A DNA stretch of 64,000 bases from contig JACPJN010000009.1 in NCBI GenBank assembly GCA_016187515.1, positions 4,891 through 68,890 of the forward strand. The letters run 5' to 3'. Position 1 is the first letter of the stretch. Each line of letters starts with the position of its first letter. The translations under genes and the position numbers were made by a program. The notes beneath the pieces are model-generated. The model had not been told where the DNA came from, searched no databases, and saw nothing but the letters and a program-made list of their open reading frames with translations. This document shows, in pieces, positions 20,422 through 64,000 of this stretch. Origin of the DNA: Candidatus Uhrbacteria bacterium (lineage in GTDB: Bacteria; Patescibacteriota; Patescibacteriia; GWA2-47-26).

Positions 20422-20484
20422 GCACTATACCACAAACCTCCCCTTAAGGTAAGGGGAGGTAGGAGGGTTATGCAAATCTCATGA

Positions 20485-20937
20485 TTATTCCTGCCCTGTC
20501 TGCGTTCCGGAAACAACCGGACCGCCGTGGCCGCGATGCCGCCGCGCGACTTTGAGGCGTGCAAGCTCGCGTTCCAGGCCCGCGGCTGCCGCGGCAAAGG
20601 TCTCGTCATCCATGTTACGCTTTTCCGTAAGTGCGCGCTCCGCATCCGCTCGCGCCTTTTCAATCGCGGCTACTGTCAACTCCTCCGCCCGCTCCGCGGT
20701 ATCGGCAAGCACCACTACCCTATTTTGTGGCTGAACCTCTATGAAGCCACCCGACACGGCCATATACTGCTCGCCTTTGCCTTTTCGCACGGTAATCGCG
20801 CCGGGCACAAGCACCGAAACAAGCGGGATATGCTGAGGAAGTACCGTAATCTCCCCTTCTTTGGTGGGTAAGGTAATACTGTCCACCTCATCACGATAAA
20901 CGATTCTCTCTGGAGTTGCTATCTCAAATGCTATCAT
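20485..20937 (-). CDS. atpC: F1Fo ATP synthase epsilon subunit
   Basis: N-terminal beta-sandwich plus C-terminal helical hairpin. Last gene of the atp operon. Confidence 0.85.
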   Translation of the reverse strand: MIAFEIATPERIVYRDEVDSITLPTKEGEITVLPQHIPLVSVLVPGAITVRKGKGEQYMAVSGGFIEVQPQNRVVVLADTAERAEELTVAAIEKARADAERALTEKRNMDDETFAAAAAGLERELARLKVARRHRGHGGPVVSGTQTGQE

Positions 20938-20938
20938 A

Positions 20939-22369
<1,431 letters not shown>

Positions 22370-22603
22370 TTATTCTGCAAATTTAAAACATCCTTCGCAT
22401 TGAGGTGTATCGCCTGACGGACGTTCTCTGATGATACACCCAGTAGATTTTACATCCTGCATATACTGTTCCATATTAACTCCTTTGCCGCTTAGTAGCT
22501 CAAGATGCGATTTCCAACACGACGGACAAAAATCACCATCCGGGGAACTCATCCACCCTTCAACACTTAATGTCTCCATTCGTGTTTTTCGTGTTTCATC
22601 CAT
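22370..22603 (-). CDS. Hypothetical small Cys-rich protein (CPSC...CEGC zinc-ribbon-like) between atpG and atpD
   Basis: AT-rich 77-aa ORF MDETRKTRMETLSVEGW...CPSCWKS...CEGCFKFAE. The track ORF extends spuriously to 22765 through the displaced atpG fragment. Confidence 0.3.
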   Translation of the reverse strand: MDETRKTRMETLSVEGWMSSPDGDFCPSCWKSHLELLSGKGVNMEQYMQDVKSTGCIIRERPSGDTPQCEGCFKFAE

Positions 22604-22608
22604 ATCAC

Positions 22609-22668
22609 TATTCCACCGCCGCTTTGCCGGCGGAAATTTCCGCGATTTCGCGGGTGATCGTGGCTTGC
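22609..22668 (-). pseudogene. Displaced, recoded copy of the last 19 codons of atpG (QATITREIAEISAGKAAVE*)
   Basis: Translation is identical to the atpG C-terminus (one L/V difference), but about 35% of nucleotides differ, all at synonymous positions. It is GC-rich like the atpG body, whereas the current atpG tail at 22809-22868 is AT-rich. Confidence 0.6.
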
Positions 22669-22808
22669 CCTGTAGTAGAAGTCCGACGACTCTGCGCTTT
22701 GCCCCGTAGTAGAGCAAAGCTTCACTACAGGGCTTTGCGCAGGTCAGTGTGCGCCTCCGTCGCAATGTCGGACTTTCACTACGGGGCGTGGCGGGTTTGA
22801 TTATTTAA

Positions 22809-23867
22809 TTATTCTAATGCTGCTTTACCTGCTGATATCTCGGCTATCTCCCTAGTAATAGTAGCTTGCCGTGCCTGATTGAACGTAAAGGTTAAGTCAT
22901 CAATCATATCGCGCGCGGCGTCCGAGGCGTTTTTCATCGCCACCATGCGCGCGGAATGTTCAGAGGCGGATGATTCCAAAATTGCTTGGTACACTTGAAC
23001 TTCCACCAACCGCGGGAGCATACCGTCCAGCACTTCGGCCGGGGTCGGCTCGAAAAGGTAGGAGTAGGAGTAGTTCGCCGATCGTAACCCCTCCTCGCCT
23101 CCCCTTACCCTAAGGGGAGGAACCGATCGATCTCCCTCCCTTAAGGTAAGGGAGGGTTGGGGTGGGTTATGAATTCCGCCCGCCACGACTTCCTTCGTCA
23201 ACGGCAGCAACTGTTTCACATTCGGCACTTGGCGGATGGACGAAATAAAATCCGTGTAAGCAAGATACACGGCATCATACTTGCCAGCCACGAAATCCGT
23301 AATTGCAAGTTGCGCGACCGGCCGTACATCCGTAATCCGCGGATTATTGCTTAAATTATTAAATGTCGCGACAATATTCCAGCCCAGCCGTCGGGCAAGG
23401 TCAGTTCCCTTTTTGCCTACTGTCAGAAAGTCTATCTTAATAGCGTTTTTTGGCGTTGTAATAGCGTCGGACTGGCGATCATGCTTAGAAGCCATACGTA
23501 CGCCATCATTACGCCATGAGACGCTATTTAAGCGCACAAACTCTATTACTCGTTTTGCCATTTGCGCGTTGAAGCCGCCGCAAAGTCCGCGGTCGGACGA
23601 AACAAGTACCACAAGTGCGCGTTCCATTTTTTCCGGCTGCCGCAAAAGCGCGTGATGCGCCGCATCCGTCACTTTTGCCAGTTCCCCGACGGTTTCCCAA
23701 CCAAGATTTGCATACGGCCGCGTACCCAGCGTAGCATTTACCGCCCGGCGCATTTTGGACGCCGAAACCAGCTCCATGGCTTTGGTTATTTTTTTAGTGT
23801 TCGAAATACTCTTAATTCTCCTTTTAATAATTCTGGTACTCACGGGCATAGTTTGGGTAGAAGCCAT
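22809..23867 (-). CDS. atpG: F1Fo ATP synthase gamma subunit with an in-frame double repeat insertion
   Basis: Gamma N- and C-terminal helices. The insert at 23083-23171 encodes ...HNPPQPSLTLREGDRSVPPLRVRGGEEGLR.... Confidence 0.85.
   Translation of the reverse strand: MASTQTMPVSTRIIKRRIKSISNTKKITKAMELVSASKMRRAVNATLGTRPYANLGWETVGELAKVTDAAHHALLRQPEKMERALVVLVSSDRGLCGGFNAQMAKRVIEFVRLNSVSWRNDGVRMASKHDRQSDAITTPKNAIKIDFLTVGKKGTDLARRLGWNIVATFNNLSNNPRITDVRPVAQLAITDFVAGKYDAVYLAYTDFISSIRQVPNVKQLLPLTKEVVAGGIHNPPQPSLTLREGDRSVPPLRVRGGEEGLRSANYSYSYLFEPTPAEVLDGMLPRLVEVQVYQAILESSASEHSARMVAMKNASDAARDMIDDLTFTFNQARQATITREIAEISAGKAALE
23083..23171. repeat. Family-1 double element (reverse-complement unit plus forward unit), in frame in atpG
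   Basis: CGTAACCCCTCCTCGCCTCCCCTTACCCTAAGGGGAGG then CTCCCTCCCTTAAGGTAAGGGAGGGTTGGGGTGGGTTATG. Confidence 0.85.
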
Positions 23868-25818: not shown

Positions 25819-25902
25819 ATGTGCTGTGGTAAATCAAGTAAAGCAAGTAAATCAGGCAAGTCAAGCACTTGATTTACCTGTCTCGCTTGATTTACTCACA
25901 AT

Positions 25903-27635: not shown

Positions 27636-27644
27636 TGGATTGTA

Positions 27645-27722
27645 GTAAATCAGGTAAATCAAGCGAGACAAGTAAATCAAGCGCTTGATTTACTTAATTT
27701 ACTTGCTTTACTTGATTTACTT
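27645..27722. repeat. Family-4 GTAAATCAAG-word dyad spacer between atpI-like and atpB
   Basis: Same word set at 13039-13067 (after def), 25829-25897 (atpH/atpF spacer) and 38455-38531 (rpsM/rpmJ spacer). Confidence 0.8.
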
Positions 27723-27992
27723 TTTACTAATAATCTTCATCATTTTAAAATAAACCAACCACGAACTCACCACAAGCGAAATTCCAATTCCAACCAGCAG
27801 CAGCCACGGGCTGGTCTCAAATCTACGGTCCAGCCAGCGACCCCCCAGCGCCAACACCACGAGCGGCACTGCAATAGTATACCCCAATTCCCAAGCCAAA
27901 GAAAGGGCCGACCATGTTCCGTTTTCACGATCTCCCTCCCTTAAGTTAAGGGAGGGTTGGGGAGAGTTATGCTCAACTTTTTCATCTGTCAT
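27717..27992 (-). CDS. AtpZ/AtpI-like small membrane protein (atp operon leader gene) with an in-frame repeat
   Basis: Two TM helices (LSLAWELGYTIAVPLVVLALGG, WLLLVGIGISLVVSSWLVYF). Repeat 27931-27971 encodes [14 protein letters not shown] at the N-terminus. Confidence 0.4.
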   Translation of the reverse strand: MTDEKVEHNSPQPSLNLREGDRENGTWSALSLAWELGYTIAVPLVVLALGGRWLDRRFETSPWLLLVGIGISLVVSSWLVYFKMMKIISKK

Positions 27993-28180
27993 ATTCGTTG
28001 CATTCGTCCAACTATTCGTTGATTTGTACACAATTGAAAATTTATCCAGTATACCCCGCCGCCCGATTCCGGTCAAAGGTTTTTTATCAACACCCGCCCA
28101 TCACAATCCCCCTCCCTTAAGGTAAGGGAGGGCTGGGGTGGGTTATGTCGCTTATTTTAGCACAAATCCGCAATTTGCGC

Positions 28181-28581: not shown

Positions 28582-28700
28582 TCCCCTCCCTTAAGGTAAG
28601 GGAGGGCTAGGGTGGGTTATGAGTCGTGCACCGTTCGTAACCCCTCCCATCCCTCCCTTCGCGAAGGGAGGGACCAACCTCCCCTTACCCTAAGGGGAGG
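28582..28700. repeat. Family-1 triple element (intergenic, downstream of the GC-rich islet)
   Basis: Forward unit, then a CCCTCCCTTCGCGAAGGGAGGG hairpin, then a reverse-complement unit. Confidence 0.8.
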
Positions 28701-30009
28701 AAATTGATCGTATCAATTTTTCAATCTGCCTCTCCCATCTAAACTCATGCACGACTCGCGCTTTGGCGTTTTGGCCAAGCTCGTAACGCAACGCGTCATC
28801 ACGCAAAAGTTGCACGGCCACGCGGGCAAACGCGGCCGGATCATTGGGATCAACCAGTGCTCCGGTTTTTCCATCCAAGATTGCTTCGGGTATTCCTCCG
28901 CTCCGTCCGCCAATTGATGGCTTACCAAACATTGCGGCTTCCAAAAAGACAATTCCAAATCCTTCTACATCCGCGCCGATCTGACGCGAAGGCATGACAA
29001 ACAGATCACAAAGCGCAAAATAAGCCGCCCGCTCTTCGTCGGACACCACACCGACAAAACGTACATAGGGTTGCAACCCCCCGCTCCCACCCCTCCCTCC
29101 CACCCCCTCTTGATCTCCCCCTCGGGTCCCGGCTGCGGCCGAGGATCCTCGATTCTCGAGAATCGGGACAGGGGGAGAGATTCCTCGGGCAGGGGAGGAA
29201 ATTGAATCGTTTCTCCCCCTCTCCGAGGGGGAGTTAGAGGGGGTCTGGAGTGCAGACTCCGCCACCATCCTCTGCAATCTCCCCAAATCCGGCCCATCTC
29301 CCGCCACCACATACACCACCTCCGGCACGTGCTGTAAAATCTCCGGCAACGCCTTAATCACCAAATCATGCCCTTTCCGCTCCACCACCCGCCCAAGCGT
29401 CAAAATCACACGCTTACCCACAAGCCCCAATTTCCGGCGCAACAATTCCACATCTTCCGTTTTCACATCAGTGGAAATCTCCGGACACGGATACACCACA
29501 ATCATCCGGTTGCGATTGCTCACGATCGTGAATTTTTGCAACCGCGCATTTTCAATGCAACGCTTGGTAAACTCGCTGTTGGCCACGATGAGCTTCGCGT
29601 GCGATAAAATCTTTTTTGTCAGCCACCGTTTCCGCCAGGACTTTTGCGCCATAAGCACATCCATGCCGTGCGTAAATACGACATACGGAACGCGCTTGCG
29701 CAACAGATACGCCACCGTGCCAAGGGGCAACACGTGTCCAACAAAAAGCAAGTCGTATTTTTGCTTCTTCAATACTCGCCGCACCGTGCGATATGTCTTA
29801 AACCACCGCGGCCAAACCCATCCCAACAATTCTCCTCCCCTTAAGGTAAGGGGAGGATGGGAGGGGTTATGCCAATGTGGGCCATCATCCGCAACCACAT
29901 CCACTCCATGCCCTTGCCTCTTCAACTCTTCAACCAACCCCCCATAATACGACGCCACTCCCCCATGTTGCGGCGGATACTCCAGGGTAATCAACAAAAT
30001 TTTTTTCAT
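28690..30009 (-). CDS. GT4-family glycosyltransferase with two in-frame repeat insertions
   Basis: GT-B N-terminus MKKILLITLEYPPQHGGV and C-terminal E..7E-like region. Inserts at 29834-29871 ([13 protein letters not shown]) and 29076-29246 (about 55 aa, Ser/Gly/Pro-rich). Confidence 0.75.
   Translation of the reverse strand: MKKILLITLEYPPQHGGVASYYGGLVEELKRQGHGVDVVADDGPHWHNPSHPPLTLRGGELLGWVWPRWFKTYRTVRRVLKKQKYDLLFVGHVLPLGTVAYLLRKRVPYVVFTHGMDVLMAQKSWRKRWLTKKILSHAKLIVANSEFTKRCIENARLQKFTIVSNRNRMIVVYPCPEISTDVKTEDVELLRRKLGLVGKRVILTLGRVVERKGHDLVIKALPEILQHVPEVVYVVAGDGPDLGRLQRMVAESALQTPSNSPSERGRNDSISSPARGISPPVPILENRGSSAAAGTRGGDQEGVGGRGGSGGLQPYVRFVGVVSDEERAAYFALCDLFVMPSRQIGADVEGFGIVFLEAAMFGKPSIGGRSGGIPEAILDGKTGALVDPNDPAAFARVAVQLLRDDALRYELGQNAKARVVHEFRWERQIEKLIRSISSP
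29076..29246. repeat. Composite GC hairpin cluster of about 170 bp (E-type CTCCCCCTC..GAGGGGGAGTTAGAGGGGGT units), in frame in the GT4 gene
   Basis: Three hairpins including CTCGATTCTCGAGAATCGGG. The same E-type tail is seen at 12224-12274, 41701-41750, 7548-7583 and 4397-4513. Confidence 0.75.
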
Positions 30010-38445: not shown

Positions 38446-38537
38446 ATCTTGTTGAGCGAGGCAAGCGAGACAAGTAAATTAAGCGCGACAAGCTTGTGAT
38501 TTACCTAATTTACTTGCTTTACTTGATTTACTTTCAA

Positions 38538-39144: not shown

Positions 39145-41052
39145 TCACTCCCGCCGAGGCGCAATATCCACCGGGGAGTTAAAGCTACCGGGCTCCACCA
39201 CCGCTTTTATCCGCCGCAGTCCCACTCCCAATGCTTCTTCCTTAGCCACCCGCACCTGTCCGATAATCCCGGTACGCGCCACGTGCGGCCCGCCGCAGAT
39301 CTCCTGGCTAAAAGTCGGGGCCTGCGGGTCGGCGCTGGCGGCCTGGTCCGGATCGCCAATGGAATACACCTTGACGACTTCGTCATAACGCTCCGGAAAA
39401 AATCCGATCACGTTTTTCTTGTACGCCTCATCAACCGTCATCTCCTGCCAACTAACCGGATAATCTCGCGCGATCGCGGCGTTGATCAACTTCTCGATCT
39501 CCGCCAATTCCGTCTTCGTGATGGCCGTTGGATGCGTAAAATCAAAACGCAGCCGCTCCGGAGTAATGTTACTTCCGCTTTGTTTAACATGATCGCCAAG
39601 CACCCGCCGCAGCGCCGCGTGCAGCAAATGCGTAGCGGTGTGCCCCATAATAGTTTTATCGGATTGATCCGCCAGGCCCCCGTGAAATTTACGCGCGACT
39701 CCTTGACGGGAAATTGCCTGATGCTGTTTCTGCGCTTCTAAAAATCCTTCGCCATCCACCGCCAACCCTTTTTCGCGCGCAAGCTCCTGGGTCATCTCCA
39801 AGGGAAAGCCATAACTCTGGTACAAATCAAACGCGTCCTTCGCTGAAATAACTCCCCCTCTTAAGTTAAGAGGGGGCCGGGGGGAGTTATGTTCAACCAT
39901 CCCCTCAAACACCTTCAGCCCCCTTATCAGCGTCTTTCTAAACTTGTCCTCTTCTTTTTTCATCGCCTCGACAATCAATCCCTGACTTTCCGCAAGATTG
40001 GGATACGCGCCGCGATAGGCCTCCACCACCGACCGCGCCACTTCCTCGCAAAATTGATCTTTTATTCCAAGCACATGCGCATAGCGGATCGCGCGCCGCA
40101 TTAACCGGCGGGTAAAGTATCCTTGCTCCTTATTTGACGGATGCGCGCCGTCGGCGATAAGGAAGGTGGCCGCGCGTAAATGATCCATAATCACGCGGAA
40201 TGCTTTGTTGACTTCCTCGGACTGCCCATATTTTTTGCGGCTGACCCTCTCCAGAGTCGCGCGCAGCGGATCAAAAATATCAATCCTAAAAATATCCGGA
40301 TTATCCAAGACCGCGGCCATCATCCGCTCCAGTCCTCCGCCAAAATCCACGTTCTTGCGCGGAAGCGGCGCAAACCCGTCCGCGACTTTACGATATTCCA
40401 TAAACACGCTGTTGGCAATTTCCAAAAACCGGCCGCAATCGCAGTTGGGGTGACACTTATCTCCAAACTTTGGATCGTGTTGCACTTGCGTAAACTCATA
40501 GAACACCTCGGAATCCGGACCGCCCGGCTCTCCGGATGGCATCTTCTCCGGCTCTCCGGCGCGGCTCCACCAATTATTTTTTGAGCCATAAAAAAGAATC
40601 CGCTCCTTTGAAAATCCAAGATTCTCCCAAATTTTTGCCGATTCGGTGTCTTTCGGGAGGTTATGCGCCGGATCACCTTCAAAACAAGTCACCCACAAGC
40701 GCTCCCGCGGGATCCCCAATTCTTTAGTGAGAAACTCAAAAAGCCACGGGAGCTGTTCGCGCTTGAAGTAGTCGCCCAGGGACCAATTTCCCAGCATTTC
40801 AAAAAAGGTGGTGTGCCGGTTATCCCCCACCTCTTCAATATCCTGGGTGCGGAAACATTTTTGGCTGTCGGCCAGGCGTTTTCCTTTGGGATGCGTTTCG
40901 CCCAAAAGATACGGAATCATGGGCTGCATGCCGGAGCCGGTAAACAAGGTCGTCGGATCGTTTTCCGGCAGAAGCGAAGAGGACGGCACGATGATATGCC
41001 CGCGCGCCGCGAAAAAATCCAGATATTTTTGACGAAGTTCCGCAGTAGTCAT
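39145..41052 (-). CDS. alaS: Alanyl-tRNA synthetase, short form (635 aa; lacks the C-Ala domain) with an in-frame palindrome
   Basis: Class II catalytic core plus editing-domain motif HTATHLLHAALRRVLG. Repeat 39848-39891 encodes VEHNSPRPPLNLRGGV. Confidence 0.85.
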   Translation of the reverse strand: MTTAELRQKYLDFFAARGHIIVPSSSLLPENDPTTLFTGSGMQPMIPYLLGETHPKGKRLADSQKCFRTQDIEEVGDNRHTTFFEMLGNWSLGDYFKREQLPWLFEFLTKELGIPRERLWVTCFEGDPAHNLPKDTESAKIWENLGFSKERILFYGSKNNWWSRAGEPEKMPSGEPGGPDSEVFYEFTQVQHDPKFGDKCHPNCDCGRFLEIANSVFMEYRKVADGFAPLPRKNVDFGGGLERMMAAVLDNPDIFRIDIFDPLRATLERVSRKKYGQSEEVNKAFRVIMDHLRAATFLIADGAHPSNKEQGYFTRRLMRRAIRYAHVLGIKDQFCEEVARSVVEAYRGAYPNLAESQGLIVEAMKKEEDKFRKTLIRGLKVFEGMVEHNSPRPPLNLRGGVISAKDAFDLYQSYGFPLEMTQELAREKGLAVDGEGFLEAQKQHQAISRQGVARKFHGGLADQSDKTIMGHTATHLLHAALRRVLGDHVKQSGSNITPERLRFDFTHPTAITKTELAEIEKLINAAIARDYPVSWQEMTVDEAYKKNVIGFFPERYDEVVKVYSIGDPDQAASADPQAPTFSQEICGGPHVARTGIIGQVRVAKEEALGVGLRRIKAVVEPGSFNSPVDIAPRRE

Positions 41053-41079: not shown

Positions 41080-42495
41080 TTACAAATAAATCCTAAATTT
41101 CAAATCCCAAACTTTTGTAATTTGTGTTTTGGTGCTTGGAATTTCCTTGTGTTTTGGTGCTTGGAATTTGGAATTTGCGCGTGGCTCATTCAAAAGTCGC
41201 ACCGCATCTATTACTCCCCCGCCAACCACCCGCTCGCCCTCATAAAACACAATGGATTGTCCGGGGGCAACGGCGCGTTGAGGTTCAGCGAATGTAACTC
41301 GGCAAAAAGTTCCATACTTGGAACTATGGAACTTTTGTTCCATACTAGCATACTCGCTAATATGATAGTATTCTAAACTTGTCAATTGTGCACGATAGCG
41401 AGTACGTGCCATAAGGCGCGCGCCATCTGGTGGTCTCTCACCTATCCACCTGACACCTGACACCTGACACCTGAACGTGCGATATTTTTGCTCCTCTGAC
41501 TCATGCGCCACAATAAGCACATTGCGTGCCATGTCCTTTTCCACCACGAAATATGGCCCGGTACCGCCTAGTTTTGTGCCATGCCGCTGGCCAATCGTAA
41601 AATGCGCCAGGCCGTCGTGAAAGCCAAGTAACGTTCCATGGACATCAATGATGGGGCCGGTCTTTCGGACCCCTCCTAACCTCCCCTTGGTAAGGGGAGG
41701 AAATTGTTTGGCGATTTCTCCCCCTCCCCGAGGGGGAGTTAGAGGGGGTCCGTCCTCCACACCGTACAAAAACTCCTTCAACTCAATTTTCCCCAAAAAA
41801 CAAACGCCCTGGCTGTCTTTTTTATTCCAATTATGCAAGCCGAATTGGCGCGCGAGTGCCCGCACTTGCGGTTTGGTATACTCGCCAATTGGAAACAGCA
41901 CGTGCCTCAACTGCTCCTGCGTAAGTCGCCAGAGGAAATAGGATTGATCTTTGTTCTGATCGACCGCTGTGTACAATTGACATAACTCCCCCTCCCCCCC
42001 TCTTAACTTAAGAGGGGGTTCCGCTCGATCTCCTCCCCTTAAGATAAGGGGAGGTTGGGAGGGGTTATGAATCCTGGCATAATGTCCAGTGGCTACAAAG
42101 TCATACCCGGCTGCAAGAGCGCGCTCCAGTCCAACCCCGAATTTTATCTCCGAATTGCAAAGCACGTCCGGGTTCGGCGTCCGGCCGGCGGCATACTCGG
42201 AATAAAAATTCTGGAGCACCCGCGCCTTATATTCCGCTGTCACATCCCAAACCTGAAGCGGAATACCTAATTTTGCCGCCACCTGCGCCGCGTCCCGCAT
42301 CTCTTGCGCCCAACACGGATCGCCAATTCCGTGGTGTTCCGTCTCAAGTTCCGTGGTGTTCCGTGATTCATACAACTTCAAATACACCCCGGCCACCTCA
42401 TATCCTTGCGCACACAGAAGCGCCGCGGCTACCGAGGAATCCACCCCGCCGGACATCAGAGCTAAAACTTTCTTTTTGTAAACCCTATCGGTCAT
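41080..42495 (-). CDS. mnmA: tRNA-specific 2-thiouridylase MnmA, enlarged to 471 aa by three in-frame repeat insertions
   Basis: PP-loop SGGVDSS at the N-terminus. Inserts at 41981-42069 and 41671-41750 (PPLILRGG-like peptides) and 41305-41336 (KFHSSKYGTF). Confidence 0.8.
   Translation of the reverse strand: MTDRVYKKKVLALMSGGVDSSVAAALLCAQGYEVAGVYLKLYESRNTTELETEHHGIGDPCWAQEMRDAAQVAAKLGIPLQVWDVTAEYKARVLQNFYSEYAAGRTPNPDVLCNSEIKFGVGLERALAAGYDFVATGHYARIHNPSQPPLILRGGDRAEPPLKLRGGEGELCQLYTAVDQNKDQSYFLWRLTQEQLRHVLFPIGEYTKPQVRALARQFGLHNWNKKDSQGVCFLGKIELKEFLYGVEDGPPLTPPRGGGEIAKQFPPLTKGRLGGVRKTGPIIDVHGTLLGFHDGLAHFTIGQRHGTKLGGTGPYFVVEKDMARNVLIVAHESEEQKYRTFRCQVSGVRWIGERPPDGARLMARTRYRAQLTSLEYYHISEYASMEQKFHSSKYGTFCRVTFAEPQRAVAPGQSIVFYEGERVVGGGVIDAVRLLNEPRANSKFQAPKHKEIPSTKTQITKVWDLKFRIYL
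41305..41336. repeat. Family-2 palindrome AAAAGTTCCATACTTGGAACTATGGAACTTTT, in frame in mnmA
   Basis: 9-bp stem AGTTCCATA/TATGGAACT. Other copies at 7091-7123, 31766-31797 (in frame), 51625-51660 (in frame), 52749-52783, 53488-53522 and 57121-57156 (intergenic, with A-run/T-run flanks). Confidence 0.85.
41981..42069. repeat. Family-1 double element (D-type CATAACTCCCCCTC...TTAAGAGGGGG plus A-type), in frame in mnmA
   Basis: Shares TTATG/CATAA termini with the other copies. Confidence 0.8.
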
Positions 42496-50939: not shown

Positions 50940-51077
50940 CCCGTAACCCCTTTCCCCGCCTCCCCTTATCCCAAGGGGAGGAGACGATACGATTCCCCCT
51001 CTTAAAATAAGAGGGGGTAGGGGGAGTTATGAAACCTTAATTGCCTCACTATACTCCACCGCTAAAAATCCTGCAAG

Positions 51078-51860: not shown

Positions 51861-51943
51861 ACGTCTTCGCCTCCTCCCCCTGATCCCTCACCCTCCCCTC
51901 TCCCTTGGGGAGGGGGTGGCCGGGTGAGGGAGGCGGGGAGGGG

Positions 51944-52702
51944 TTATGAAACTTCCACCCCATGCTCTTTCATAAATTGTACCACAAACTCCTCAATCGG
52001 AACTCCTTCTTTTTTCATCAACTTATACACACGCAAGAGATTCTCTCCCCTTTCCCAATAAGGTCCATCAGAGTTTTTCTGCTCAATCTCACAGAGTTCT
52101 TGCGAAATAACGCCCGCCGCAAGTTGAAGACGCGCAAGTTCAGGATAATCAATTAAATAATGCAAACCAATGCCGCGTTCTTGCAGCCATTCGGCGGCTT
52201 TAAAATTATATGAGGGAATGAGCGGTTTGTTTGGCGGAGTGGGCAGCACTTTTATAAACACCGCGATATCAGTAACTTTAGCTCCGCGCTCTTCCAGTAA
52301 CTTAATTCGCTCCTCTTTCGTACCCCCATAGGCCATCAGATCATCAACTAAAAGCACTCGCACTCCGGCGCTGATAAAATTTACATCACCCACGATAGGG
52401 CTTCGTCCCGGCCGTTTGGGTTTTTCCCGCACAATCACCATTGGCTTTCCGGTCTCCAACGCAATCGCCGTAGCCAGTGTTACGCCTTGCAATTCAATGC
52501 CAGCCACCACATCAATTATGGAAAAATCTATAAGACGGAAAAACTCCTTGGCCATGAGTTTCAAAATTTCCGGCTCTTGGATCACTCCTCGCGACCAATC
52601 CACCGGAATAAACTGCCCTGTGGCCACAATCGTCGGCTTTAACTGAAACAGCGGCTTAAACGTGGCGAGTTTTTGGATGAGTTCTGGGTTTTTGATGTTC
52701 AT
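51944..52702 (-). CDS. Phosphoribosyltransferase (type I PRTase) paralog
   Basis: PRPP motif VLLVDDLMAYGGT. Paralogous to 55322-56062 (shared IVRE..KRPGR and C-terminal KEHGVEVS). Confidence 0.55.
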   Translation of the reverse strand: MNIKNPELIQKLATFKPLFQLKPTIVATGQFIPVDWSRGVIQEPEILKLMAKEFFRLIDFSIIDVVAGIELQGVTLATAIALETGKPMVIVREKPKRPGRSPIVGDVNFISAGVRVLLVDDLMAYGGTKEERIKLLEERGAKVTDIAVFIKVLPTPPNKPLIPSYNFKAAEWLQERGIGLHYLIDYPELARLQLAAGVISQELCEIEQKNSDGPYWERGENLLRVYKLMKKEGVPIEEFVVQFMKEHGVEVS

Positions 52703-55236: not shown

Positions 55237-55318
55237 CCCTCCCTTAAGGTAAGGGAGGGTAGGGTGGGTTATGAATTTCTCGTAACCCCTCCTCGCCTCC
55301 CCTTACCCTAAGGGGAGG
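55237..55318. repeat. Family-1 double element (forward plus reverse complement), intergenic after the LOG-like gene
   Basis: Same sequence as the atpG copy, in the opposite arrangement. Confidence 0.8.
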
Positions 55319-56062: not shown

Positions 56063-57111
56063 ATTTTTGAATTTTCATTAAACAGTATTATTCCCAATGC
56101 CCTAATTTTCTTTTCCCATCTCGGCCATTTTTTAAAGTAAGACCCGCTGCGGCCGTCCGTGCGCGAGACCAGATAAATTCCGGCCCACCTTAACGCGCGG
56201 CGTTTGATGCCATCAACTTCCGTTCGTAACCCCTCCTCGCCTCCCCTTAACCTAAGGGGAGGAAATTGCTTCTCGTATACCCTCCAAAAATCTCTTTGAA
56301 ATTTTTCATTTTCAATTTTTAATTTTGCATTTTTAAGTCCCATCCACATCCAGTGCGCCGTGAGTATTCCACAATCAAACGCGGGATCGTAGGCCACGGT
56401 GTGATCAAAATCAACCATCGAGGCCCTGCCGTGCGGTTTTATAAAAATATTTCGATACACCGGATCGCCCCAAATCCAGGCGCGTGGCGCGCAGTTTACC
56501 TCGCGATAGAAGGCATTTAGCTTTTGCCGCGGCACAAATTTAGCGATCCCCTGCCCCAGCCACCACCCGCCAAAAAAACTGATGATTTTCTTACGCCATG
56601 CCGGAGAGCCGCAACAATCCTGCTTTGTTTCATACGTATTCGCGTGCAGTTTGCCGAATAATCGCCCGAATAACGCCCCCAGTTCCGGATGCACTCGCCC
56701 TTGCTCAAACTCTTCCACGAGCAACGATCCCCCGCCGCCTACATCCGACATCACCAGCACACAGTGTACCGGATCAAAATAATAAATCTCCGGCACATAT
56801 TCCTTCCCCCACAATTTCGCGAGCAATTTCATTATCTGATATTCTCCGCAAATTCGCAGCGGATCCACATAATGCTTCTCGCCCTTGGTTTCCCAGGCCC
56901 TTTTGTTATGCTCCCGCGCCTGCTTCACAAAAAGCACGCGCCTCGTGCGCGGCGTTTTTACCACCACGCGCCAAAGATAATTATTATTGGAATACTTACT
57001 CACCTCATCTCGCTTCAAAATTTCCTCAATCGCGAAGTTAATCCTCGGCTGCACAAAGCTCCGCAGAAACTCGTGGAGATTGTCCTTTGTAATCTCAAAT
57101 TGCCGCCGCAT
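56059..57111 (-). CDS. Protein-kinase-like phosphotransferase (APH/MtnK/ChoK family) with in-frame repeats
   Basis: Catalytic loop IWGDPVYRNIF and VDFDH metal-binding motif. Repeat 56225-56262 encodes FPPLRLRGGEEGLR. AT-rich repeat at 56290-56335. Confidence 0.45.
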   Translation of the reverse strand: MRRQFEITKDNLHEFLRSFVQPRINFAIEEILKRDEVSKYSNNNYLWRVVVKTPRTRRVLFVKQAREHNKRAWETKGEKHYVDPLRICGEYQIMKLLAKLWGKEYVPEIYYFDPVHCVLVMSDVGGGGSLLVEEFEQGRVHPELGALFGRLFGKLHANTYETKQDCCGSPAWRKKIISFFGGWWLGQGIAKFVPRQKLNAFYREVNCAPRAWIWGDPVYRNIFIKPHGRASMVDFDHTVAYDPAFDCGILTAHWMWMGLKNAKLKIENEKFQRDFWRVYEKQFPPLRLRGGEEGLRTEVDGIKRRALRWAGIYLVSRTDGRSGSYFKKWPRWEKKIRALGIILFNENSKI

Positions 57112-57158: not shown

Positions 57159-58064
57159 TTAGATTTTTGTTAGCCATTGGCCAATAACTCGCGCGAATTC
57201 TTCCAAATGTACTGGCTCGCGAAAAGTGTGCGGGGCGCCGGAGATAATGTGGAGCTCTCTGGTGCCCGGAAGGGCGGCGTAAAGAATTTTTTGATGCTCC
57301 GGCGGACAGGATTCGTCTTTTTCGCCAACCACGAGGAGTGTAGGCATGGTTAAGCGGTCTGTCATTCTCCCACCACCCACTCCCACCCCCTCTTTATCTC
57401 CCCCTCGGGCAGGGGGAGAAAACGGCGCGAGCAAATCGTACTTCAGCCGATCTTCCATATGCGACCAGGGCAGACGTTTAATCGCATCGGGGTTGGAAAC
57501 GCTGTGCGTCGTACGCCATCCGGTTTCTTTCCACTTTCTCCACTCCTCATCCTTGGCATGCCCCTCCATGCTCAATTTCCCAGACACTACCGTCCCAATC
57601 GGCGCGAGCGCTTTTACTTTTTCCGGATGCCGCTCGCCATACAATGCTACGCATAATCCGCCCAAACTGTGCCCGGCCAGCACAAACGGCTCCTGATACC
57701 AAGGTTGTGGTTGGGCAGAACTGTCCCAAAATCTCACGGCCGTGAGATTTTGGGACAATCTCGCGGCCCACCCAATCACATCTTCCAAATCCTCGTAATA
57801 ATTCGTGGTGGTGGCCTCTTCATACTGGCCGTCGCTTTCGCCAAAGGTATTCGTCGTATCAAACCGCACCACCGTATAGCCATGCTCCAAAAATACTTTG
57901 GCCATCACTTCGATGTGGGGTTGTTCCTTAAAGCCGCCCAGTCCGTGCATTACAAAGGCAAGCTTGCCCGACTGATCCGCCTCCGGCGGATGAGCAGGCA
58001 CATCAACTACCACCGCCACCTTTTGTCCCTTGCGATTTTGGATAAACACTTTTTGCATAGCCAC
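57159..58064 (-). CDS. Alpha/beta-fold hydrolase
   Basis: Nucleophile elbow GHSLGG. Repeat-derived insert at 57380-57418. Confidence 0.6.
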   Translation of the reverse strand: MAMQKVFIQNRKGQKVAVVVDVPAHPPEADQSGKLAFVMHGLGGFKEQPHIEVMAKVFLEHGYTVVRFDTTNTFGESDGQYEEATTTNYYEDLEDVIGWAARLSQNLTAVRFWDSSAQPQPWYQEPFVLAGHSLGGLCVALYGERHPEKVKALAPIGTVVSGKLSMEGHAKDEEWRKWKETGWRTTHSVSNPDAIKRLPWSHMEDRLKYDLLAPFSPPARGGDKEGVGVGGGRMTDRLTMPTLLVVGEKDESCPPEHQKILYAALPGTRELHIISGAPHTFREPVHLEEFARVIGQWLTKI

Positions 58065-59817: not shown

Positions 59818-59820
59818 ATA

Positions 59821-62733
59821 TTATTTCCCATGACAATGTTTATATTTTAGTCGGGTTCCGTCTGACTTAGTCGCTCCGCACGGACATGGCTCATTGCGGC
59901 CAATTTTATGCCCTAGCCCCTGACCCCTAGACCCTAGACCCTCCGTATGCGGGTGATCCGCGACATAACCCGTGGCCGGGGCTTTGCCATCAGCTTGCGC
60001 CCCGACCGTAGTTGAGGCGGCTAAACCGCCCATCCCCCGCTCCATGGTTTTTGCCGGCGCGGATAATTGCATGCCCCGGCGAGAAAGCAAAGACGGCGCC
60101 TCTGGCGCGGTAAACCCGACTTTAAAAATACCATACACCACTTGCTTCTCAATCAGATGCTGCAACTCTTGAAACATCCGATAGGCCTCTTTTTTATAGG
60201 CCACCAGCGGCTCCTGCTGGCCATAGGCGCGCAATCCTATTCCGCACCGCAAATGATCAATCGCGTCCAGATGCTCCACCCAAAGCAGGTCAATCGCGCG
60301 CAGCCAGATGGCCTTTTCAATCTGCCGCATCGGCTGAATCTCGCCACTAAGCGACGGCGCATCGTCTTTCAGTGGCGAATTGATGCGCTGTTCAAGCGCT
60401 CCATACGCCTGCCGCGCCGTTTCCGCCAGTGTTTCCACAATTTTTGTCCGTGCCTGCGCATCTTCAAGTTTGCTCCCATTGCCCCCGTAAATATGCTCAA
60501 TCTGCTCGCGCAGATCAGCCGGCGCCGGGAAAATAGTGCGCGCCACTTCTATAATCTCCTGCACATTCCATTCATCACGGCTGCCGTTTGCCGGCGTATG
60601 AAACAACACCACTTGCTCAATTTCGCGTTCGATCATATGAAGGACTTCGTCCTTCAAGTTCACAGTCATCAGTTCACTGTTCACAGTAGTCTGATCGGAC
60701 TGTGAACTGTCGTCTGTGAACTGTGAACTCGTCGCAAGCACCTGCTTGCGACGCTTGTAAATCACCTCCCGGTGCTTGTTAATCACATCATCATATTCCA
60801 ACAGGTGTTTGCGAATATCAAAATTGTGCTGTTCCACTTTGCTCTGCGCCGACTCAATCGAGCGCGACACGAGTTTGCTCTCAATCGGCACGTCCTCCGG
60901 AATTTTGAACCGCGTCATCAGCGTTTTAACCCGTTCTCCGCCAAAAATCCGCATCAGCTCATCAGAAAGCGACACATAAAATTGCGTTGAACCCGGATCG
61001 CCTTGACGACCGGAGCGGCCGCGCAGCTGATTGTCAATGCGCCGCGATTCATGCCGCTCGGTACCCAGCACATGCAGCCCGCCTAACTTTTTGACCTCTT
61101 CGGCCTCCAAAAAGTTAGGCGGGTTTCCGCCCAAAATAATATCCACCCCGCGGCCGGCCATATTGGTCGCCACGGTTACCGCGCCGGCCCGGCCGGCTTG
61201 CGCGATAATTTCCGCTTCCTTCTCGTGGTTCTTGGCATTTAATAATTTATGCGGCACTCCCGCGCGCTCCAGCAATTGCGACAAAATTTCATTTTTCTCA
61301 ATAGAGATGGTGCCGACCAAAACCGGCTGACCGCGGCCGTGCCGTTCTTTAATCTCTTTAACCACCGCTTCAAATTTTCCCGGCTCGGTGCGATAGACGC
61401 GATCCGGAAGATCAGCGCGCACCATGGTTTTATTGGTCGGAACCACCACCACTTCCAAGCCATAGATTTTGTGAAACTCTTCGGACTCGGTTGCCGCGGT
61501 TCCGGTCATGCCGGAAAGTTTTTTATACAGGCGAAAATAATTTTGAAACGTAACCGTGGCGAGCGTTTGCGATTCCCGCTCGATTTTTACGCCCTCTTTC
61601 GCTTCCACGGCCTGATGTAAACCTTCGGACCAGCGGCGTCCGGGCATGAGCCGGCCGGTAAATTCATCAACAATCACGACCCCGTCATCGCGCACCACAT
61701 AATCCTTATCCTTGCGGTAAAGCGTGTGCGCCCGCAAGGCCTGCTCCGCGTGATGCACTAAACTCATTCCTCCGGCGTCATAAAGATTCGGAATATTTAG
61801 GAATTTTTCAAGTTTGGAAATCCCCGCCTCGGTAAAAGTCGCCGCGCGCATCTTTTCGTCAATATTGTAATCCTCGTTTTCTTTAAGGCGGGATACTAAA
61901 CCGGCAAATTTATAGTATAAGTCCCCGGACTCTTCCGCCGGAGCGGAAATAATCAGCGGGGTCCGCGCCTCATCTACCAAAATCGAATCCACCTCATCAA
62001 CAATCGCGTAGTGATGTCCCCTTTGCACCATTTCGGAGGAGGCGGTCACCATGTTGTCGCGTAAATAGTCAAATCCGTATTCGTTATTCGTGCCGTAAGT
62101 AATATCCGCGCCATACGCTTCTTGCCGAGAAACCGGCTTGAGCGCCTCACCCTCCACCACATACGCGCTTTCATGAGTAATGCACCCAACCGTAAGACCA
62201 AGCGCCTGGTACACTCGTCCCATCCATACGGCGTCGCGGCGCGCCAAATAATCATTCACGGTAACCACGTGCACGCCCTGGCCAGCAAGCGCGTTTAAAT
62301 ACGCTGGCAAGGTTGCCACCAGCGTTTTTCCTTCACCGGTGCGCATTTCGGAAATCGCGCCGCGATGCAAAACCATGCCACCAAGCAACTGCACATCATA
62401 ATGCCGCTGGCCAAGCGCGCGTCTGGCCGCCTCGCGTACCGCGGCAAAGGCCTCGGGGAGAAGGTCGTCAAGCGTCACGCCCCCTCCCCTAACCCCTCCC
62501 ACCAAGGGAGGGGAACTTTCTTGTATCTCCCTCTCCCCTTGTGGGAGAGGGCGGGGGTGAGGGGGTGCGTTCACACCAAGCCGCTCCCGAAACTCCGCCG
62601 TCTTCGCTTTCAACTCCTCATCCGACAATTTCAAAAACTCCGGCTCCAGCGCGTTAATCCGCTCCACGGCCGGCCGCAGCTTCGCCACATACCGCGCATG
62701 CGGATCGCCGAATATTTTCGAGATAATTGACAT
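59821..62733 (-). CDS. secA: Preprotein translocase ATPase SecA with two in-frame repeat insertions and a C-terminal zinc-binding tail
   Basis: DEAD motor domains. C-terminal [21 protein letters not shown]. Insert 62478-62568 falls between the conserved ...AEFRERL and [13 protein letters not shown] second insert at 60655-60730 encodes [21 protein letters not shown]. Confidence 0.9.
62478..62568. repeat. Family-1-related GC hairpin pair, in frame in secA
   Basis: CCCCTCCCCTAACCCCTCCCACCAAGGGAGGGG and CTCCCTCTCCCCTTGTGGGAGAGGGCGGGGGTGAGGGGG. Confidence 0.8.
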
Positions 62734-62750
62734 AGAAATAGCATTGTACC

Positions 62751-64000
62751 CTAAAACCCGACTAATTGCACCTCCTCTTTAAGTTCAATGTCAAATTTAT
62801 CGCGAACGCGCTTTTTAATCTCCTCCGCCAGCGCCACAATATCATGGGCGGAAGCGCCGCCAAAATTCACCAGCGATAAGGAATGCTTCGGCGAAATACC
62901 CGCCTCACCCCGGCGGTACCCTTTTGAAAATCCGGCGCTTTGCAGCAGACAAGCGGCCGAAACTTTCACTTTTTCCTCCCCCCTTAAGGTAAGGGGGGAT
63001 TGAGGGGGGTTATGCACCTTCTCATCCTCCACTGTCCAATACCACGGATCAGGACACTCTTGTATCATGCCCTGTAGTTTTTCAAATTGATCACGGGACA
63101 CGATGGGATTCATGAAAAACGATCCGGCGGTTTTAAAACTTTCATACTCCGGCATAATCACGTATCCTTTCCGCGCGCGAATTTCAATTACGGCCTGGCG
63201 CACTTCGGCAAGAGAAGGTGAAATTTCATAACTCCCCCTCCCCCCTCTTACCTTAAGAGGGGGAATCGATGGATCTCCCTCCCTTAGGTTAAGGGAGGGC
63301 GAGGGAGGGTTACGAAAATACTCCGTCAAATCATGATAAGCAATGAGCGGCGCTCCACTGGGCGTCAGTTCCAATGTTACTTGCGTAATAATATAACGCC
63401 CTTTCATTTTTTTAAAAATACTGGCGCGGTATCCAAATTCACACCCGGCATTATCAAAAGTTACACGCGCCCCGTCTTTAGAATCAATTGCTTCAACACT
63501 TCGGATCACCGTGTCCACACTCTGCCCGTAAGCCCCGATATTCTGCACCGGCGCGGCGCCCACCGTGCCCGGAATTCCGGATAAACACTCAATTCCGGCC
63601 AAATTGCGCTCCACACACTGCGCCACTAACTCATCCCAAATTTCTCCCGCGCCAGCCGTGACTAAGGCGCGATTTTCTTCAATGCGCCACTCCACCCCCT
63701 TAATCTGCGTCATAATCGCCAGACCATCAAACCCCTTGTCGCTGACCAGAATATTACTTCCCCCGCCAAACATGAAAAATGGAATCGCGCACTCGTGAGC
63801 CGCCGTAATCGCGCGCACCAGGTCGTCGGCCGTGCGCGCCACAAAAAAATACCTGGCCGCCCCGCCGATCTTAAAGGTAGTAAATGGGGCTAAGAGTATA
63901 TCATGCTCTAATTCTTCTCCTAAGCGCTCCTTTAATGCGCGATGTGCTGATTCCGCAGATGCACTAGGTGCCGCAGATGACGCAGATGATTGATCATCTG
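62751..64000 (-). CDS. murB: UDP-N-acetylenolpyruvoylglucosamine reductase MurB (frame open to the window end; N-terminal S/A-rich extension or fusion)
   Basis: FAD-binding N-terminus [26 protein letters not shown] continues upstream of the GTG at 63842 with no stop up to 64000. Two in-frame repeat inserts at 62985-63014 and 63227-63314. Confidence 0.75.

Follow-up and report, generated by a model that had tools for sequence, protein, structure and literature searches.

What kind of repeat lies scattered through the housekeeping genes of a Candidatus Uhrbacteria bacterium (CPR/Patescibacteria), and how does it come to be read in frame there? The organism is a groundwater bacterium with a tiny genome. 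In the 64-kb stretch of its DNA that was analysed (the window), about 35 related GC-rich units were counted, a density of about 1 per 2 kb, and none were present in shuffled sequence. A strict scan, which demanded perfect pyrimidine and complementary purine arms and tolerated no more than one mismatch in the third segment, returned 35 matches (about 32 distinct units), compared to 0 in each of 20 dinucleotide shuffles. The 23-mer CCTCCCCTTAAGGTAAGGGGAGG gave 17 matches in the window at up to 3 mismatches, with 0 expected. At least nine different arm variants stand side by side, the orientation of the strict matches is unbiased (roughly 19 vs 14), and a stretch of 41 nt is 98–100% identical among copies at three unrelated sites. 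Twenty-three of the 35 units lie inside protein-coding genes, spread over 13 ORFs, in a window with a coding fraction of 0.89; the gene identities were confirmed with Pfam.

A preliminary description of this DNA had claimed more than 25 related elements spread over the window, with 20437–63314 as their span, and our count agrees with that claim. Every coordinate that it listed holds an element, although some boundaries differ from those given, and its intergenic forward/reverse pairs were recovered at 28584–28700, 50942–51031 and 55237–55318. Copies do lie within the span that it gave, but the span is too narrow because further copies are found at 4397–19592.

Unit layout and the third strand

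Units are 33–38 nt long. On the G-rich strand, a pyrimidine arm of 8–10 nt is followed by a short loop (typically TAAGGTA), a purine arm that is its Watson-Crick complement, a turn of 2–3 nt and a third G/A/T segment that usually ends in ATG. The third segment is a mirror image of the purine arm, with G opposite G and A or T opposite A. It had been described before as a G-rich tail appended to a palindrome; because it mirrors the purine arm, the unit is better read as an intrastrand triplex motif with the tail as its third strand. Judged from sequence, the layout is that of a class II purine-motif intrastrand DNA triplex, a class known as PIT/TM elements. A unit may stand alone, carry a tail on each side of its single hairpin, or be coupled head to head with another in a pair of about 80–90 nt. 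Such pairs always join two different arm variants, end in CATAAC...GTTATG and have spacers that resemble one another within this genome. The units of the window are as follows.

4397..4429, minus strand: TM unit, gltX aa 147-158; CTCCCCCTT/AAGGGGGAG/TTA/GAGGGGGT
4461..4513, plus strand: TM unit with 3' G-tract extension GGGAGGGAGGGGTGGGAG, gltX; TCTCCCCCT/AGGGGGAGA/TCA/AGAGGGGGT
4803..4835, plus strand: TM unit, exact E. coli TMECO consensus, gltX aa 12-22; CCCTCTCCC-CGC-GGGAGAGGG-CTG-GGGTGAGGG
7549..7581, minus strand: TM unit, intergenic
12226..12275, plus strand: TM unit, imperfect hairpin with G-tract extension, intergenic
12535..12575, plus strand: TM unit, intergenic, upstream of the peptide deformylase gene
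16020..16097, unstranded: TMECO-like unit, UvrD/PD-(D/E)XK helicase-nuclease aa 869-895; third-strand segments on both sides, expanded hairpin loop
19547..19592, unstranded: bilateral TM unit, ATP-grasp gene aa 277-292; one hairpin, mirror tail on each side
20437..20472, plus strand: TM unit, intergenic between atpC and the ATP-grasp gene
22200..22237, plus strand: TM unit, atpD aa 41-53, N-terminal barrel loop
23083..23171, unstranded: head-to-head pair, atpG aa 233-262; CCTCCCC half and CCCTCCC half
27934..27971, plus strand: TM unit, AtpI-like gene (ATPase_gene1) aa 36-48
28110..28147, plus strand: TM unit, intergenic
28584..28700, unstranded: intergenic cluster of a plus-strand unit, a minus-strand unit (tail to tail) and one further hairpin
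29084..29245, unstranded: composite TM units, G-tract extension and expanded loop, GT4 glycosyltransferase hotspot 2
29833..29871, plus strand: TM unit, GT4 aa 47-59
39854..39891, plus strand: TM unit (CCCCCTC variant), alaS aa 388-400
41668..41750, unstranded: head-to-head pair, mnmA aa 249-276
41981..42069, unstranded: head-to-head pair, mnmA aa 143-172; CCCCCTC and CCTCCCC, a combination also found in other phyla
50942..51031, unstranded: head-to-head pair, intergenic, upstream of secD
51891..51946, plus strand: composite or nested TM element ending in GGGGTTATG, intergenic
55237..55318, unstranded: tail-to-tail pair, intergenic; right half identical to the atpG copy 23082-23122 (100% over 41 nt)
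56225..56262, minus strand: TM unit, APH-type kinase gene aa 284-296; 98% identical to the atpG copy
57367..57419, minus strand: TM unit with G-tract extension, alpha/beta hydrolase gene
62481..62563, unstranded: head-to-head pair, secA aa 57-85; right half matches the TMECO consensus
62977..63014, plus strand: TM unit, murB aa 277-289; TCCCCCC variant, tail AGGGGGGTT
63227..63314, unstranded: head-to-head pair, murB aa 177-206

Of the 34 perfect pyrimidine hairpins in the window, 30 carry a mirror tail (score ≥0.88) on one side. Tails score 0.934 against their own arm and 0.802 ± 0.016 against permuted arms, and none of 2000 permutations reached the observed value. When GTDB species genomes were scanned with a pattern that specified nothing beyond purine or pyrimidine, 106 unique 38-mers were obtained. 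The Watson-Crick arms are 9/9 in 93 of these and the mirror tails 9/9 in 87; 605 of their 636 triple positions (95%) are C-G·G, T-A·A or T-A·T. In a fixed register, mirror mapping agrees at 96.7% compared to 82% for the best direct-repeat mapping, the CCTCCCC type being one that a shifted direct-repeat reading fits as well. Changes in the arm are matched by changes in the tail in more than 12 variants; because this covariation is partly inherited within sub-families, the independent evidence consists of about 12–14 distinct arm variants and not of the copies.

These observations bear on whether the units are ordinary REP- or MITE-like hairpin repeats, in which the tail would be no more than conserved flanking sequence or one piece of a terminal inverted repeat, without any triplex. 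By itself the hairpin is stable (-10 kcal/mol, z -2.4 to -4.2), the tail is left unpaired in Watson-Crick folding, and in paired units the two tails can pair together and close a cloverleaf (96-nt fold). However, the tail changes with the arm in a mirror and not a complementary register, even where a unit stands alone and has no second tail to pair with, and within a pair the match of each tail is to the hairpin of its own half and not to the other half. Mirror symmetry, moreover, has no significance in Watson-Crick pairing, nor for a protein that binds duplex DNA. The identical TMECO sequence was found by NMR to form a triplex in vitro, with a Tm of 70–82 C (PMC4666352); Holder et al. found no triplex footprint in E. 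coli double-stranded DNA in vivo, which suits plain hairpins (PMC4666352). Taken together, we consider ordinary hairpin repeats an unlikely explanation.

Spread across phyla and among relatives

The same 38-nt family was found among GTDB species genomes in Geobacteraceae, Nitrospirota, Dehalococcoidia and many CPR lineages. Other phyla also carry head-to-head pairs of about 85 nt made of two different variants, and the same composite element recurs in several phyla, including the cultured Geobacter argillaceus. As a DNA motif the family is not new: it is a member of the PIT/TM class of Hoyne 2000 and Holder 2015 (PMC4666352), and many phyla carry it. Units lie deep inside ORFs at 7 of 201 non-CPR loci, 26 of 79 CPR loci and 18 of 33 in the window (Fisher p = 1e-10), in a comparison of loci that were chosen for holding an element, with genes inferred from ORFs and taxonomy taken from MAG titles. 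As far as sequence can tell, residence in coding sequences in CPR is the unusual part of this family. One locus counted as non-CPR (L087), from a chromosome of 1.19 Mb, may itself be CPR.

Presence and absence of elements differ among relatives. A syntenic relative has copies at orthologous sites, and the GT4 unit at 29833..29871 has an orthologous copy, with its hairpin loop flipped, in relative L001. Elements sit at the hypervariable loops of AtpG, AtpD and GT4, and some GT4 insertions are common to species only 68% identical in the host protein. A Pfam survey of the genes in the window found no transposase or RAYT. Because neither a target-site duplication nor a conserved target was found around the elements, we infer transposition rather than demonstrate it.

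The units might instead be DNA signals that benefit the host (uptake sequences, recombination or instability hotspots, replication pause sites) and are kept by selection, genes included. USS/DUS uptake sequences are dense, occur in inverted pairs and have biased reading frames inside genes, and the window resembles them in all three respects. The coincidence of elements with hypervariable loops points the same way, and TM elements were tied to local genomic variability by Holder et al. (PMC4666352). On the other hand, so many arm variants in a single window are a poor fit to a sequence-specific receptor, occurrence in unrelated phyla is a poor fit to a species-specific signal, the units lack orientation bias, and they are strongly excluded from genes in other phyla. 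A host signal seems to us about as improbable as ordinary hairpins.

Copies inside genes

On either strand of a unit only one reading frame is free of stops, since TAA triplets, one in the loop and one at the end, interrupt the remaining two. All 23 genic copies use this sole frame and keep the host frame open, adding 11–13 aa (single unit) or about 30 aa (pair) with the reading frame preserved. The predicted peptide families are uniform: the C-rich strand in sense gives one 13-residue type and the G-rich strand a PPLRVRGGEEGLR-type, and the near-identical peptides quoted in the preliminary description are indeed read in the translations. Inserts are absent from orthologs of AtpD, SecA, MnmA and MurB with solved structures (PDB) and from AtpG relatives at 70–83% identity. 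In an AlphaFold model, the AtpG insert is a low-confidence disordered coil (pLDDT <50). Because a single open frame is used, orthologs lack the segments and the AtpG insert is predicted to be disordered, behaviour like that of Rickettsia palindromic elements (RPEs) is supported, with the genic copies predicted to add loop peptides in frame. The core of the earlier reading was thereby borne out: a dispersed GC-rich hairpin family, in frame in housekeeping genes, without counterpart in orthologs and with an RPE-like outcome.

The very uniform peptides and the GT4 insertions common to distant species could also suggest selected protein modules, i.e. functional loops spread by recombination, or ancestral protein features. 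Yet the same DNA is also found between genes and in both orientations, yielding two unrelated peptide families; the inserts occur in 13 functionally unrelated proteins, are missing from orthologs and, in AtpG, are predicted to be disordered; and the conserved constraint is on nucleic-acid triples, not codons. This makes protein modules very unlikely. Removal or bypass before protein (RNA excision, translational hopping) is harder still to credit: stable structures could in principle stall ribosomes, but two thirds of excised copies should carry stops, and the chance of the observed pattern, with every genic copy open and every insert length preserving frame, is about (1/3)^22. Assembly or binning artefacts may be dismissed almost entirely, for although all CPR sources are MAGs, the elements sit within unbroken, conserved ORFs whose flanks are intact, turn up again in MAGs of many independent studies and in the cultured Geobacter isolate, and occupy orthologous sites in the syntenic relative.

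The explanation that we regard as probable is a triplex-layout repeat family of selfish, non-autonomous DNA, whose genic copies persist in permissive loops in CPR. Units would multiply within and between genomes. Purine-motif triplexes exclude RNA, so the triplex would matter at the DNA level, most likely in a single-stranded intermediate of replication or transposition that some machinery recognises. Copies landing in genes are retained only in the stop-free frame and in permissive loops, and these would be translated as extra loop peptides. Outside CPR, genic copies would be purged, whereas in CPR they would remain, much like RPEs in Rickettsia, plausibly because purifying selection is weak in reduced, host-dependent genomes.

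Comparison with known repeats

The closest known systems are PIT (Hoyne, Maher et al. 2000, 2002) and TM/TMECO elements (Holder et al. 2015, PMC4666352), which have the same class II segments. The window family shares with TMECO the pyrimidine arm, loop, purine arm, 3-nt turn and reverse-Hoogsteen G/T strand. Two window copies, at 4803 and 62529, match the TMECO consensus, the latter differing from E. coli copy no. 1 in only two loops (CTTGT vs TGT; CGG vs CCG). Inverted pairs join two sub-types, comparable to the type A–type B pairs of E. coli, and neither family has a known transposon link. The dominant window variants are unlike TMECO in their arms (CCTCCCC, CCCTCCC, CCCCCTC), TTAAGGTAA loop and GTTATG end, and they come from a CPR bacterium, TMECO having been reported from proteobacteria. 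Set against the density in the window, genome sizes put E. coli K-12 at roughly 1 copy per 200 kb and Microcystis at 1 per 13 kb. The respective copy counts are 23 and 443 G/C-rich motifs (PMC4666352).

RPEs and the window family are alike as selfish palindromic repeats of reduced, host-dependent genomes that also occur between genes, and in their in-frame insertion in housekeeping genes, where they add loop peptides without destroying the protein. RPEs (Ogata et al. 2000, cited in PMC3184786) are about 105–146 nt long and restricted to Rickettsia. They have no described triplex layout, whereas the window unit of 33–38 nt (pairs 80–90 nt) is defined by its third strand and occurs in several phyla. 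REP/REPIN elements are short GC-rich hairpins with an inverted doublet as the apparent replicating unit and a presumed single-stranded intermediate, and are reportedly mobilised by RAYT, as ascribed to Nunvar 2010 and to Bertels and Rainey 2011. They are extragenic and are not known to have a third strand or a target-site duplication. The window family resembles them in its hairpins, inverted doublets, missing target-site duplication and presumed single-stranded intermediate; a conserved GTAG-type 5' motif was not found at the window elements, and the window has no RAYT gene.

BRE of Bordetella and pneumococcal BOX/RUP/SPRITE are small repeats fused or internal to coding sequences, and about 9 genes with internal BRE inserts were called striking (PMC3184786). 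Here 13 genes are affected in a single 64-kb window, by elements that differ from these repeats in sequence and structure. The DNA motif class is already known as PIT/TM; in-gene residence in CPR sets this family apart from the reported copies, which in E. coli TMECO are described as invariably intergenic, while in the window two thirds (23/35) lie in frame in genes such as those for ATP synthase, SecA and tRNA synthetases.

Anatomy of the units and covariation of the third segment

The preliminary description had reported a family of GC-rich palindromic repeats scattered over the window. The family is real: the 23-mer CCTCCCCTTAAGGTAAGGGGAGG has 17 matches with up to 3 mismatches (0 expected), and such an element was found at every site for which one had been claimed. 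Thirty-five units were counted, 23 of them inside 13 ORFs of a window that is 89% coding. Read on its G-rich strand, a unit (TM unit, for triplex motif; 33–38 nt) consists of a pyrimidine arm of 8–10 nt, a loop, a perfectly complementary purine arm, a turn of 2–3 nt and a tail, usually followed by ATG. The tail is the purine arm in reverse, with G opposite G and either A or T opposite A.

Arm, turn and tail of six example units
AAGGGGAGG-TTG-GGAGGGGTT
AAGGGAGGG-TTG-GGGTGGGTT
AAGAGGGGG-CCG-GGGGGAGTT
AAGGGGGGA-TTG-AGGGGGGTT
AGGGGGAGA-TCA-AGAGGGGGT
GGGAGAGGG-CGG-GGGTGAGGG

Watson-Crick pairing of such a mirror tail with either arm is impossible, and DNA folding with ViennaRNA, which does not model base triples, leaves the tail single-stranded. 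Judged from its sequence, the tail is what a reverse-Hoogsteen third strand would require (G·G-C, A·A-T and T·A-T). A strict scan for a pyrimidine arm, a complementary purine arm and an antiparallel (mirror) G/A/T third segment, in this order on one strand, with stems of at least 8 nt, short loops and at most 1 mismatch, gave 35 hits in the window, corresponding to about 32 distinct units, and no hit in any of 20 dinucleotide-shuffled versions. An Rfam search of the elements returned no family at threshold, only spurious microRNA hairpin matches far below it.

When hairpins were the sole starting point, the score of the tails was 0.934 with the arm of their own unit and 0.802 ± 0.016 with permuted arms, and none of 2000 permutations reached the observed value. 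An unbiased test used one genome per GTDB species and a pattern fixing only the purine/pyrimidine class at the variable positions. Among the matches listed there were 106 unique 38-mers, 93 with perfect arms and 87 with perfect mirror tails, and 605 of their 636 triple positions were canonical purine-motif triples. Because a sliding “direct-repeat tail” control is confounded by the near-symmetric purine cores, the mappings were compared in a fixed register: for the 38-mers among the matches listed, the mirror mapping reached 96.7% with 87 perfect cases, versus 82% and 39 perfect cases for the best of the direct-repeat mappings. These 39 are all of a single variant, in which the turn leaves it ambiguous whether the reading is mirror or direct. 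The sequence comparison shows that the units share a design of three covarying segments. Such covariation in more than 12 variants from several phyla is comparative evidence that a triplex, and not just a hairpin, is under selection.

A G-quadruplex in place of the triplex has been ruled out by NMR for TMECO, the E. coli member of the triplex motifs (PMC4666352). We rejected it here as well: four G3 tracts, which a quadruplex could use, are present only in GGGAGGG-type variants, and the mirror rule holds in all variants.

Three arrangements were found: the single unit, the hairpin that has a tail at either end, and the pair, for the most part in head-to-head orientation. Neighbouring units are oriented head to head (‘-+’) in 69 cases, tail to tail in 22 and in tandem in 5. 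All 50 head-to-head neighbour pairs, 44 of them with a positive spacer, combine different arm variants, and every one of the 19 same-arm ‘-+’ cases looks like a single hairpin flanked by two tails. In pairs each tail matches its own hairpin, and the ends are inverted (CATAAC...GTTATG). The spacers are alike within the window (...CGATCGATCT...), so that copying apparently involves the whole pair. At 2702–3449 of a locus from a Desulfuromonadaceae MAG (L014), a 220-nt unit is repeated four times in tandem with one head-to-head TM pair in each, which suggests that TM pairs can be amplified inside longer tandem repeats.

A second sub-family has a TTA turn, CTCCCCCT arms and a conserved G-tract 3′ extension, GGGAGGGAGGGGTGGGAG. 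The extension is a canonical G-quadruplex-forming run adjoining the triplex motif.
4478–4513 and 12240–12275: the extension
29084–29126 and 57367–57409: its complement

Coding copies and host proteins

Pfam bore out the gene names given in the preliminary description: AtpD, AtpG, SecA, AlaS, MnmA, MurB, GltX, a GT4 glycosyltransferase and a UvrD/PD-(D/E)XK helicase-nuclease, among others. The claim of in-frame residence also holds, as the 23 units within ORFs keep the host reading frame. On either strand a unit is free of stops in a single frame, since the two others run into TAA triplets, located in the loop TTAAGGTAA and in CATAA. This open frame of the strand is used by 23 of 23 genic copies. 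With the C-rich strand as sense the peptide is HNP(S/P)QP(P/S)L(T/N/I)LRGG, and with the G-rich strand PPL(R/K)(V/L)RGGE(E/G)(G/E)L. Excision of the units from transcripts would predict stops in two thirds of the copies and is very unlikely, all genic copies being in the stop-free frame. A word-index search of a protein database with 60 aa of TM-derived peptide gave no match.

Alignments for AtpD, SecA, MnmA, MurB and AtpG confirmed that the inserts are without counterpart in orthologs. AtpD has 16 extra residues in a loop of the N-terminal barrel, SecA about 28 between residues 56 and 86, MnmA two inserts of about 22–28 residues each, and MurB two inserts. AtpG relatives with 70–83% identity do not have the insert of the window protein. 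The window AtpG shows 100% identity to an annotated protein of a Candidatus Uhrbacteria bacterium (202-kb NCBI contig), which places the window in a CPR (Patescibacteria) genome; this database copy begins 6 codons later than the window version. In the AlphaFold model, AtpG residues 230–270, including the TM pair (aa 233–262), are coil with pLDDT below 50.

Some insertions are old. GT4 from L001, a locus of a syntenic relative, is 68% identical to the window protein and shares the insertion site, its unit there having a flipped hairpin loop (PPLKVRGG vs PPLTLRGG). In the AtpG pair of L001 the right half has both arm and tail changed. At L001 10700–10830 (AtpG of relative P0004), the orthologous TM unit has a nested 42-nt insert, with the peptide SDALRGRSPTEASD, within its hairpin loop, so that TM loops may be insertion targets themselves.

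The protein loops that hold units are hotspots for other elements, and relatives carry unrelated repeat-derived peptides there (VIPDRDRGS...LDSRFHGNDK, RHPERSEGS...LRSAQNDK). At the first AtpG hotspot, 23439–23528 (aa about 113–145), the window has the decayed remains of a palindrome, whose 38-nt arms show 71% complementarity, and relatives have other repeat-derived peptides, e.g. VIPERHRGS...LDSRFHGND and VIARSEATWQS. Several unrelated hairpin families therefore colonise the same loops in Uhrbacteria. In CPR markers such as AtpD, SecA and the aminoacyl-tRNA synthetases, TM inserts make the proteins longer and disturb alignment, tree building and structure prediction, as do three or more other repeat families found in those genes.

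Other elements and genes of the window
7089, 31763, 41303, 51625, 52748, 53486 and 57121: second repeat family, palindrome AAAAAAGTTCCATACTTGGAACTATGGAACTTTTTT, 36 nt each; 3 of 7 copies in frame in genes (mnmA, a PRTase-domain gene, a C39-like peptidase gene); the mnmA copy is aa 386–398 (EQKFHSSKYGTFC), a segment that MnmA in the PDB does not have
4166–4199 (gltX), 48815–48848 (secD 3′ end) and 60698–60731 (secA aa 668–679): third in-frame repeat, GACTGTGAACTG type, with peptides such as SSQSSVHSR; solved SecA structures lack the segment seen in secA
13029–13077, 25828–25907, 27635–27732 and 38455–38534: intergenic arrays of 9-nt period (GTAAATCAA / TTGATTTAC) upstream of operons including atp, which may be regulator binding-site arrays
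22612–22808, minus strand, between atpG and atpD: immediately 3′ of the atpG stop, a 137-nt hairpin element of great stability (RNA fold −73 kcal/mol, z −7.9), followed by a second copy of the atpG C-terminus in GC-rich codons (GQATITREIAEISAGKAAVE, then stop), the working gene ending in AT-rich codons (QATITREIAEISAGKAALE, then stop); it looks like a small integrative element inserted at the atpG 3′ end with a replacement end; relative L002 has nothing at this position and L001 a BrnT toxin gene
Within 22370–22765: Cys-rich ORF of about 77 aa, next after the atpG-end element
42599–44317: ORF of 64% GC with internal repeats and no Pfam match, adjoining a TrwB/VirD4-like type IV coupling protein (44487–46367); 42599–46367 possibly belongs to a mobile region or to a conjugation-like system of CPR
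48807–50939: SecD, with a PpiC-type rotamase (PPIase) domain inserted between P1 sub-domains

Distribution and possible mode of spread

Among the matches listed, the family with the TTAAGGTAA loop and GTTATG end is present in many Patescibacteria (Uhr-, Harrison-, Gottesman-, Falkow- and Parcubacteria) and in Geobacteraceae/Desulfuromonadales, Nitrospirota, Dehalococcoidia, Gammaproteobacteria, KSB1 and Kapaibacteria. The composite pair of the CCCCCTC and CCTCCCC arm variants is near-identical in Uhrbacteria, Geobacter and Nitrospirota, and the cultured Geobacter argillaceus has an intergenic pair. Only 7 IMG/VR contigs contain the pattern, and BLAST against plasmid and phage collections gave no match, a result in which the low-complexity filter may hide matches. 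Units counted as deep in an ORF when 60 or more codons separated them from both ORF edges; random 35-mers drawn from these loci served as control. The genic share differs between non-CPR and CPR loci (p = 1.4e-10), and the peptide frames of genic copies in CPR are the two seen in the window; genic residence is close to CPR-specific.

TM units lying deep in ORFs, with random 35-mers from the same loci
Non-CPR loci: 7/201 (3.5%); random 35-mers 58%
CPR loci: 26/79 (33%); random 35-mers 52%
Window: 18/33 (55%); random 35-mers 67%

The units are dispersed, retain the reading frame and differ in presence or absence among relatives; copies in atpG, a kinase gene and an intergenic site are 98–100% identical over 41 nt. 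Flanking direct repeats of 3–8 nt were not enriched above chance in 44 pairs, flanks were not conserved beyond ATG(A), and none of the 50 ORFs scanned with Pfam in these 64 kb was a Y1/HUH transposase or another transposase. Two genes of recombination or transfer type were found:
870–1901: Xer-like tyrosine recombinase
44487–46367: VirD4-like protein

The absence of target-site duplication is compatible with HUH/Y1-type mechanisms and is no proof of them. We infer that the units would propagate via a single-stranded DNA form. Semerad and Maher reportedly found in 1994 that RNA is excluded from purine-motif triplexes. A role as a “mobile ribosome-binding site” was suggested by the tail GGAGGGGTTATG, which is Shine-Dalgarno-like and precedes a start codon. 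ORFs of at least 80 codons start at the tail ATG in 12 of 93 non-CPR and 1 of 30 CPR units, versus about 6% for random ATGs, and the role was dropped as a general function.

The simplest account of persistence in CPR genes would be relaxed purifying selection combined with the open frame that the units bring along, in parallel with the Rickettsia palindromic elements (RPEs). CPR joins Rickettsia as a reduced-genome lineage with selfish repeats fixed in frame in essential genes. How effective selection is, how well loops tolerate inserts and how new peptide segments arise can therefore be tested in a clade of far greater size and diversity. A wider proposal, which we put forward as speculative and rather improbable, is that triplex-forming units are a cross-phylum mobile DNA class, in which selection, and recognition by some machinery, would act on the three-stranded fold of a single-stranded intermediate. 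In CPR they would then keep supplying surface loops to many proteins (13 of about 56 window genes) and be a major origin of such loops, and hence contribute to the unusual divergence of CPR housekeeping proteins.

Comparison with known repeat systems

Intrastrand triplex motifs (PIT/TM elements) have been known for 25 years. PIT (“potential intrastrand triplex”, Hoyne and Maher) and TM/TMECO (Holder et al.) elements are defined as CCCTCNCCC-N3-6-GGGNGAGGG-N3-GGGNGAGGG, and TMECO forms a triplex in vitro according to NMR, with a Tm of 70–82 °C (PMC4666352). A stable triplex as single-stranded DNA was demonstrated by CD and NMR only for E. coli TMECO oligonucleotides; TMECO is not known to have a transposon link or a function (PMC4666352). 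The strict scan recovers the class II purine-motif PIT/TM layout in the window units, and the covariation supports it. Copies 4803–4835 and 62529–62563 fit the TMECO consensus exactly and 16020–16097 nearly. The arms of the other approximately 30 units differ from it, which places the window in the PIT/TM class but mostly outside the TMECO sub-family; these units are further arm variants of the same design. The structural class being known, the element is not categorically new; the observation in the preliminary description and its RPE-like interpretation stand.

No papers linking RPE-like repeats, MITEs, REPs or triplex motifs with CPR were found in the literature searched. Compared with that literature, three observations appear to be new: the massive in-frame colonisation of essential genes by the triplex-motif class in CPR, the covariation evidence for a third strand across many variants, and the spread of one composite element across phyla.

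MITEs have terminal inverted repeats and target-site duplications, whereas TM pairs have inverted ends and flanking direct repeats that are not enriched, which sets them outside that definition. REP/REPIN-RAYT systems have a GTAG-like tetranucleotide 5′ of the hairpin and a RAYT gene in the genome. The flanks of the units showed no conserved 5′ motif, and no Y1/HUH transposase was found among the 50 ORFs scanned in the 64 kb covered here. The window units resemble RPEs in that they are inserted in frame, leave the ORF intact and occupy loops that orthologs lack. By description the two are set apart: RPEs (RPE-1 and following) are about 105–146 nt long and belong to Rickettsia, whereas the window family belongs to Candidatus Uhrbacteria, with units of 33–38 nt and pairs of 80–90 nt. 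The 23 TMECO copies of E. coli K-12 are “always located intergenically” and often form inverted pairs of two sub-types (PMC4666352). In contrast, 23 of the 35 window units are inside ORFs; the location describes the E. coli copies and is not part of the structural definition. Inverted pairs that join two different sub-types are shared by TMECO and the present family, in which all 50 head-to-head pairs counted are of this kind.
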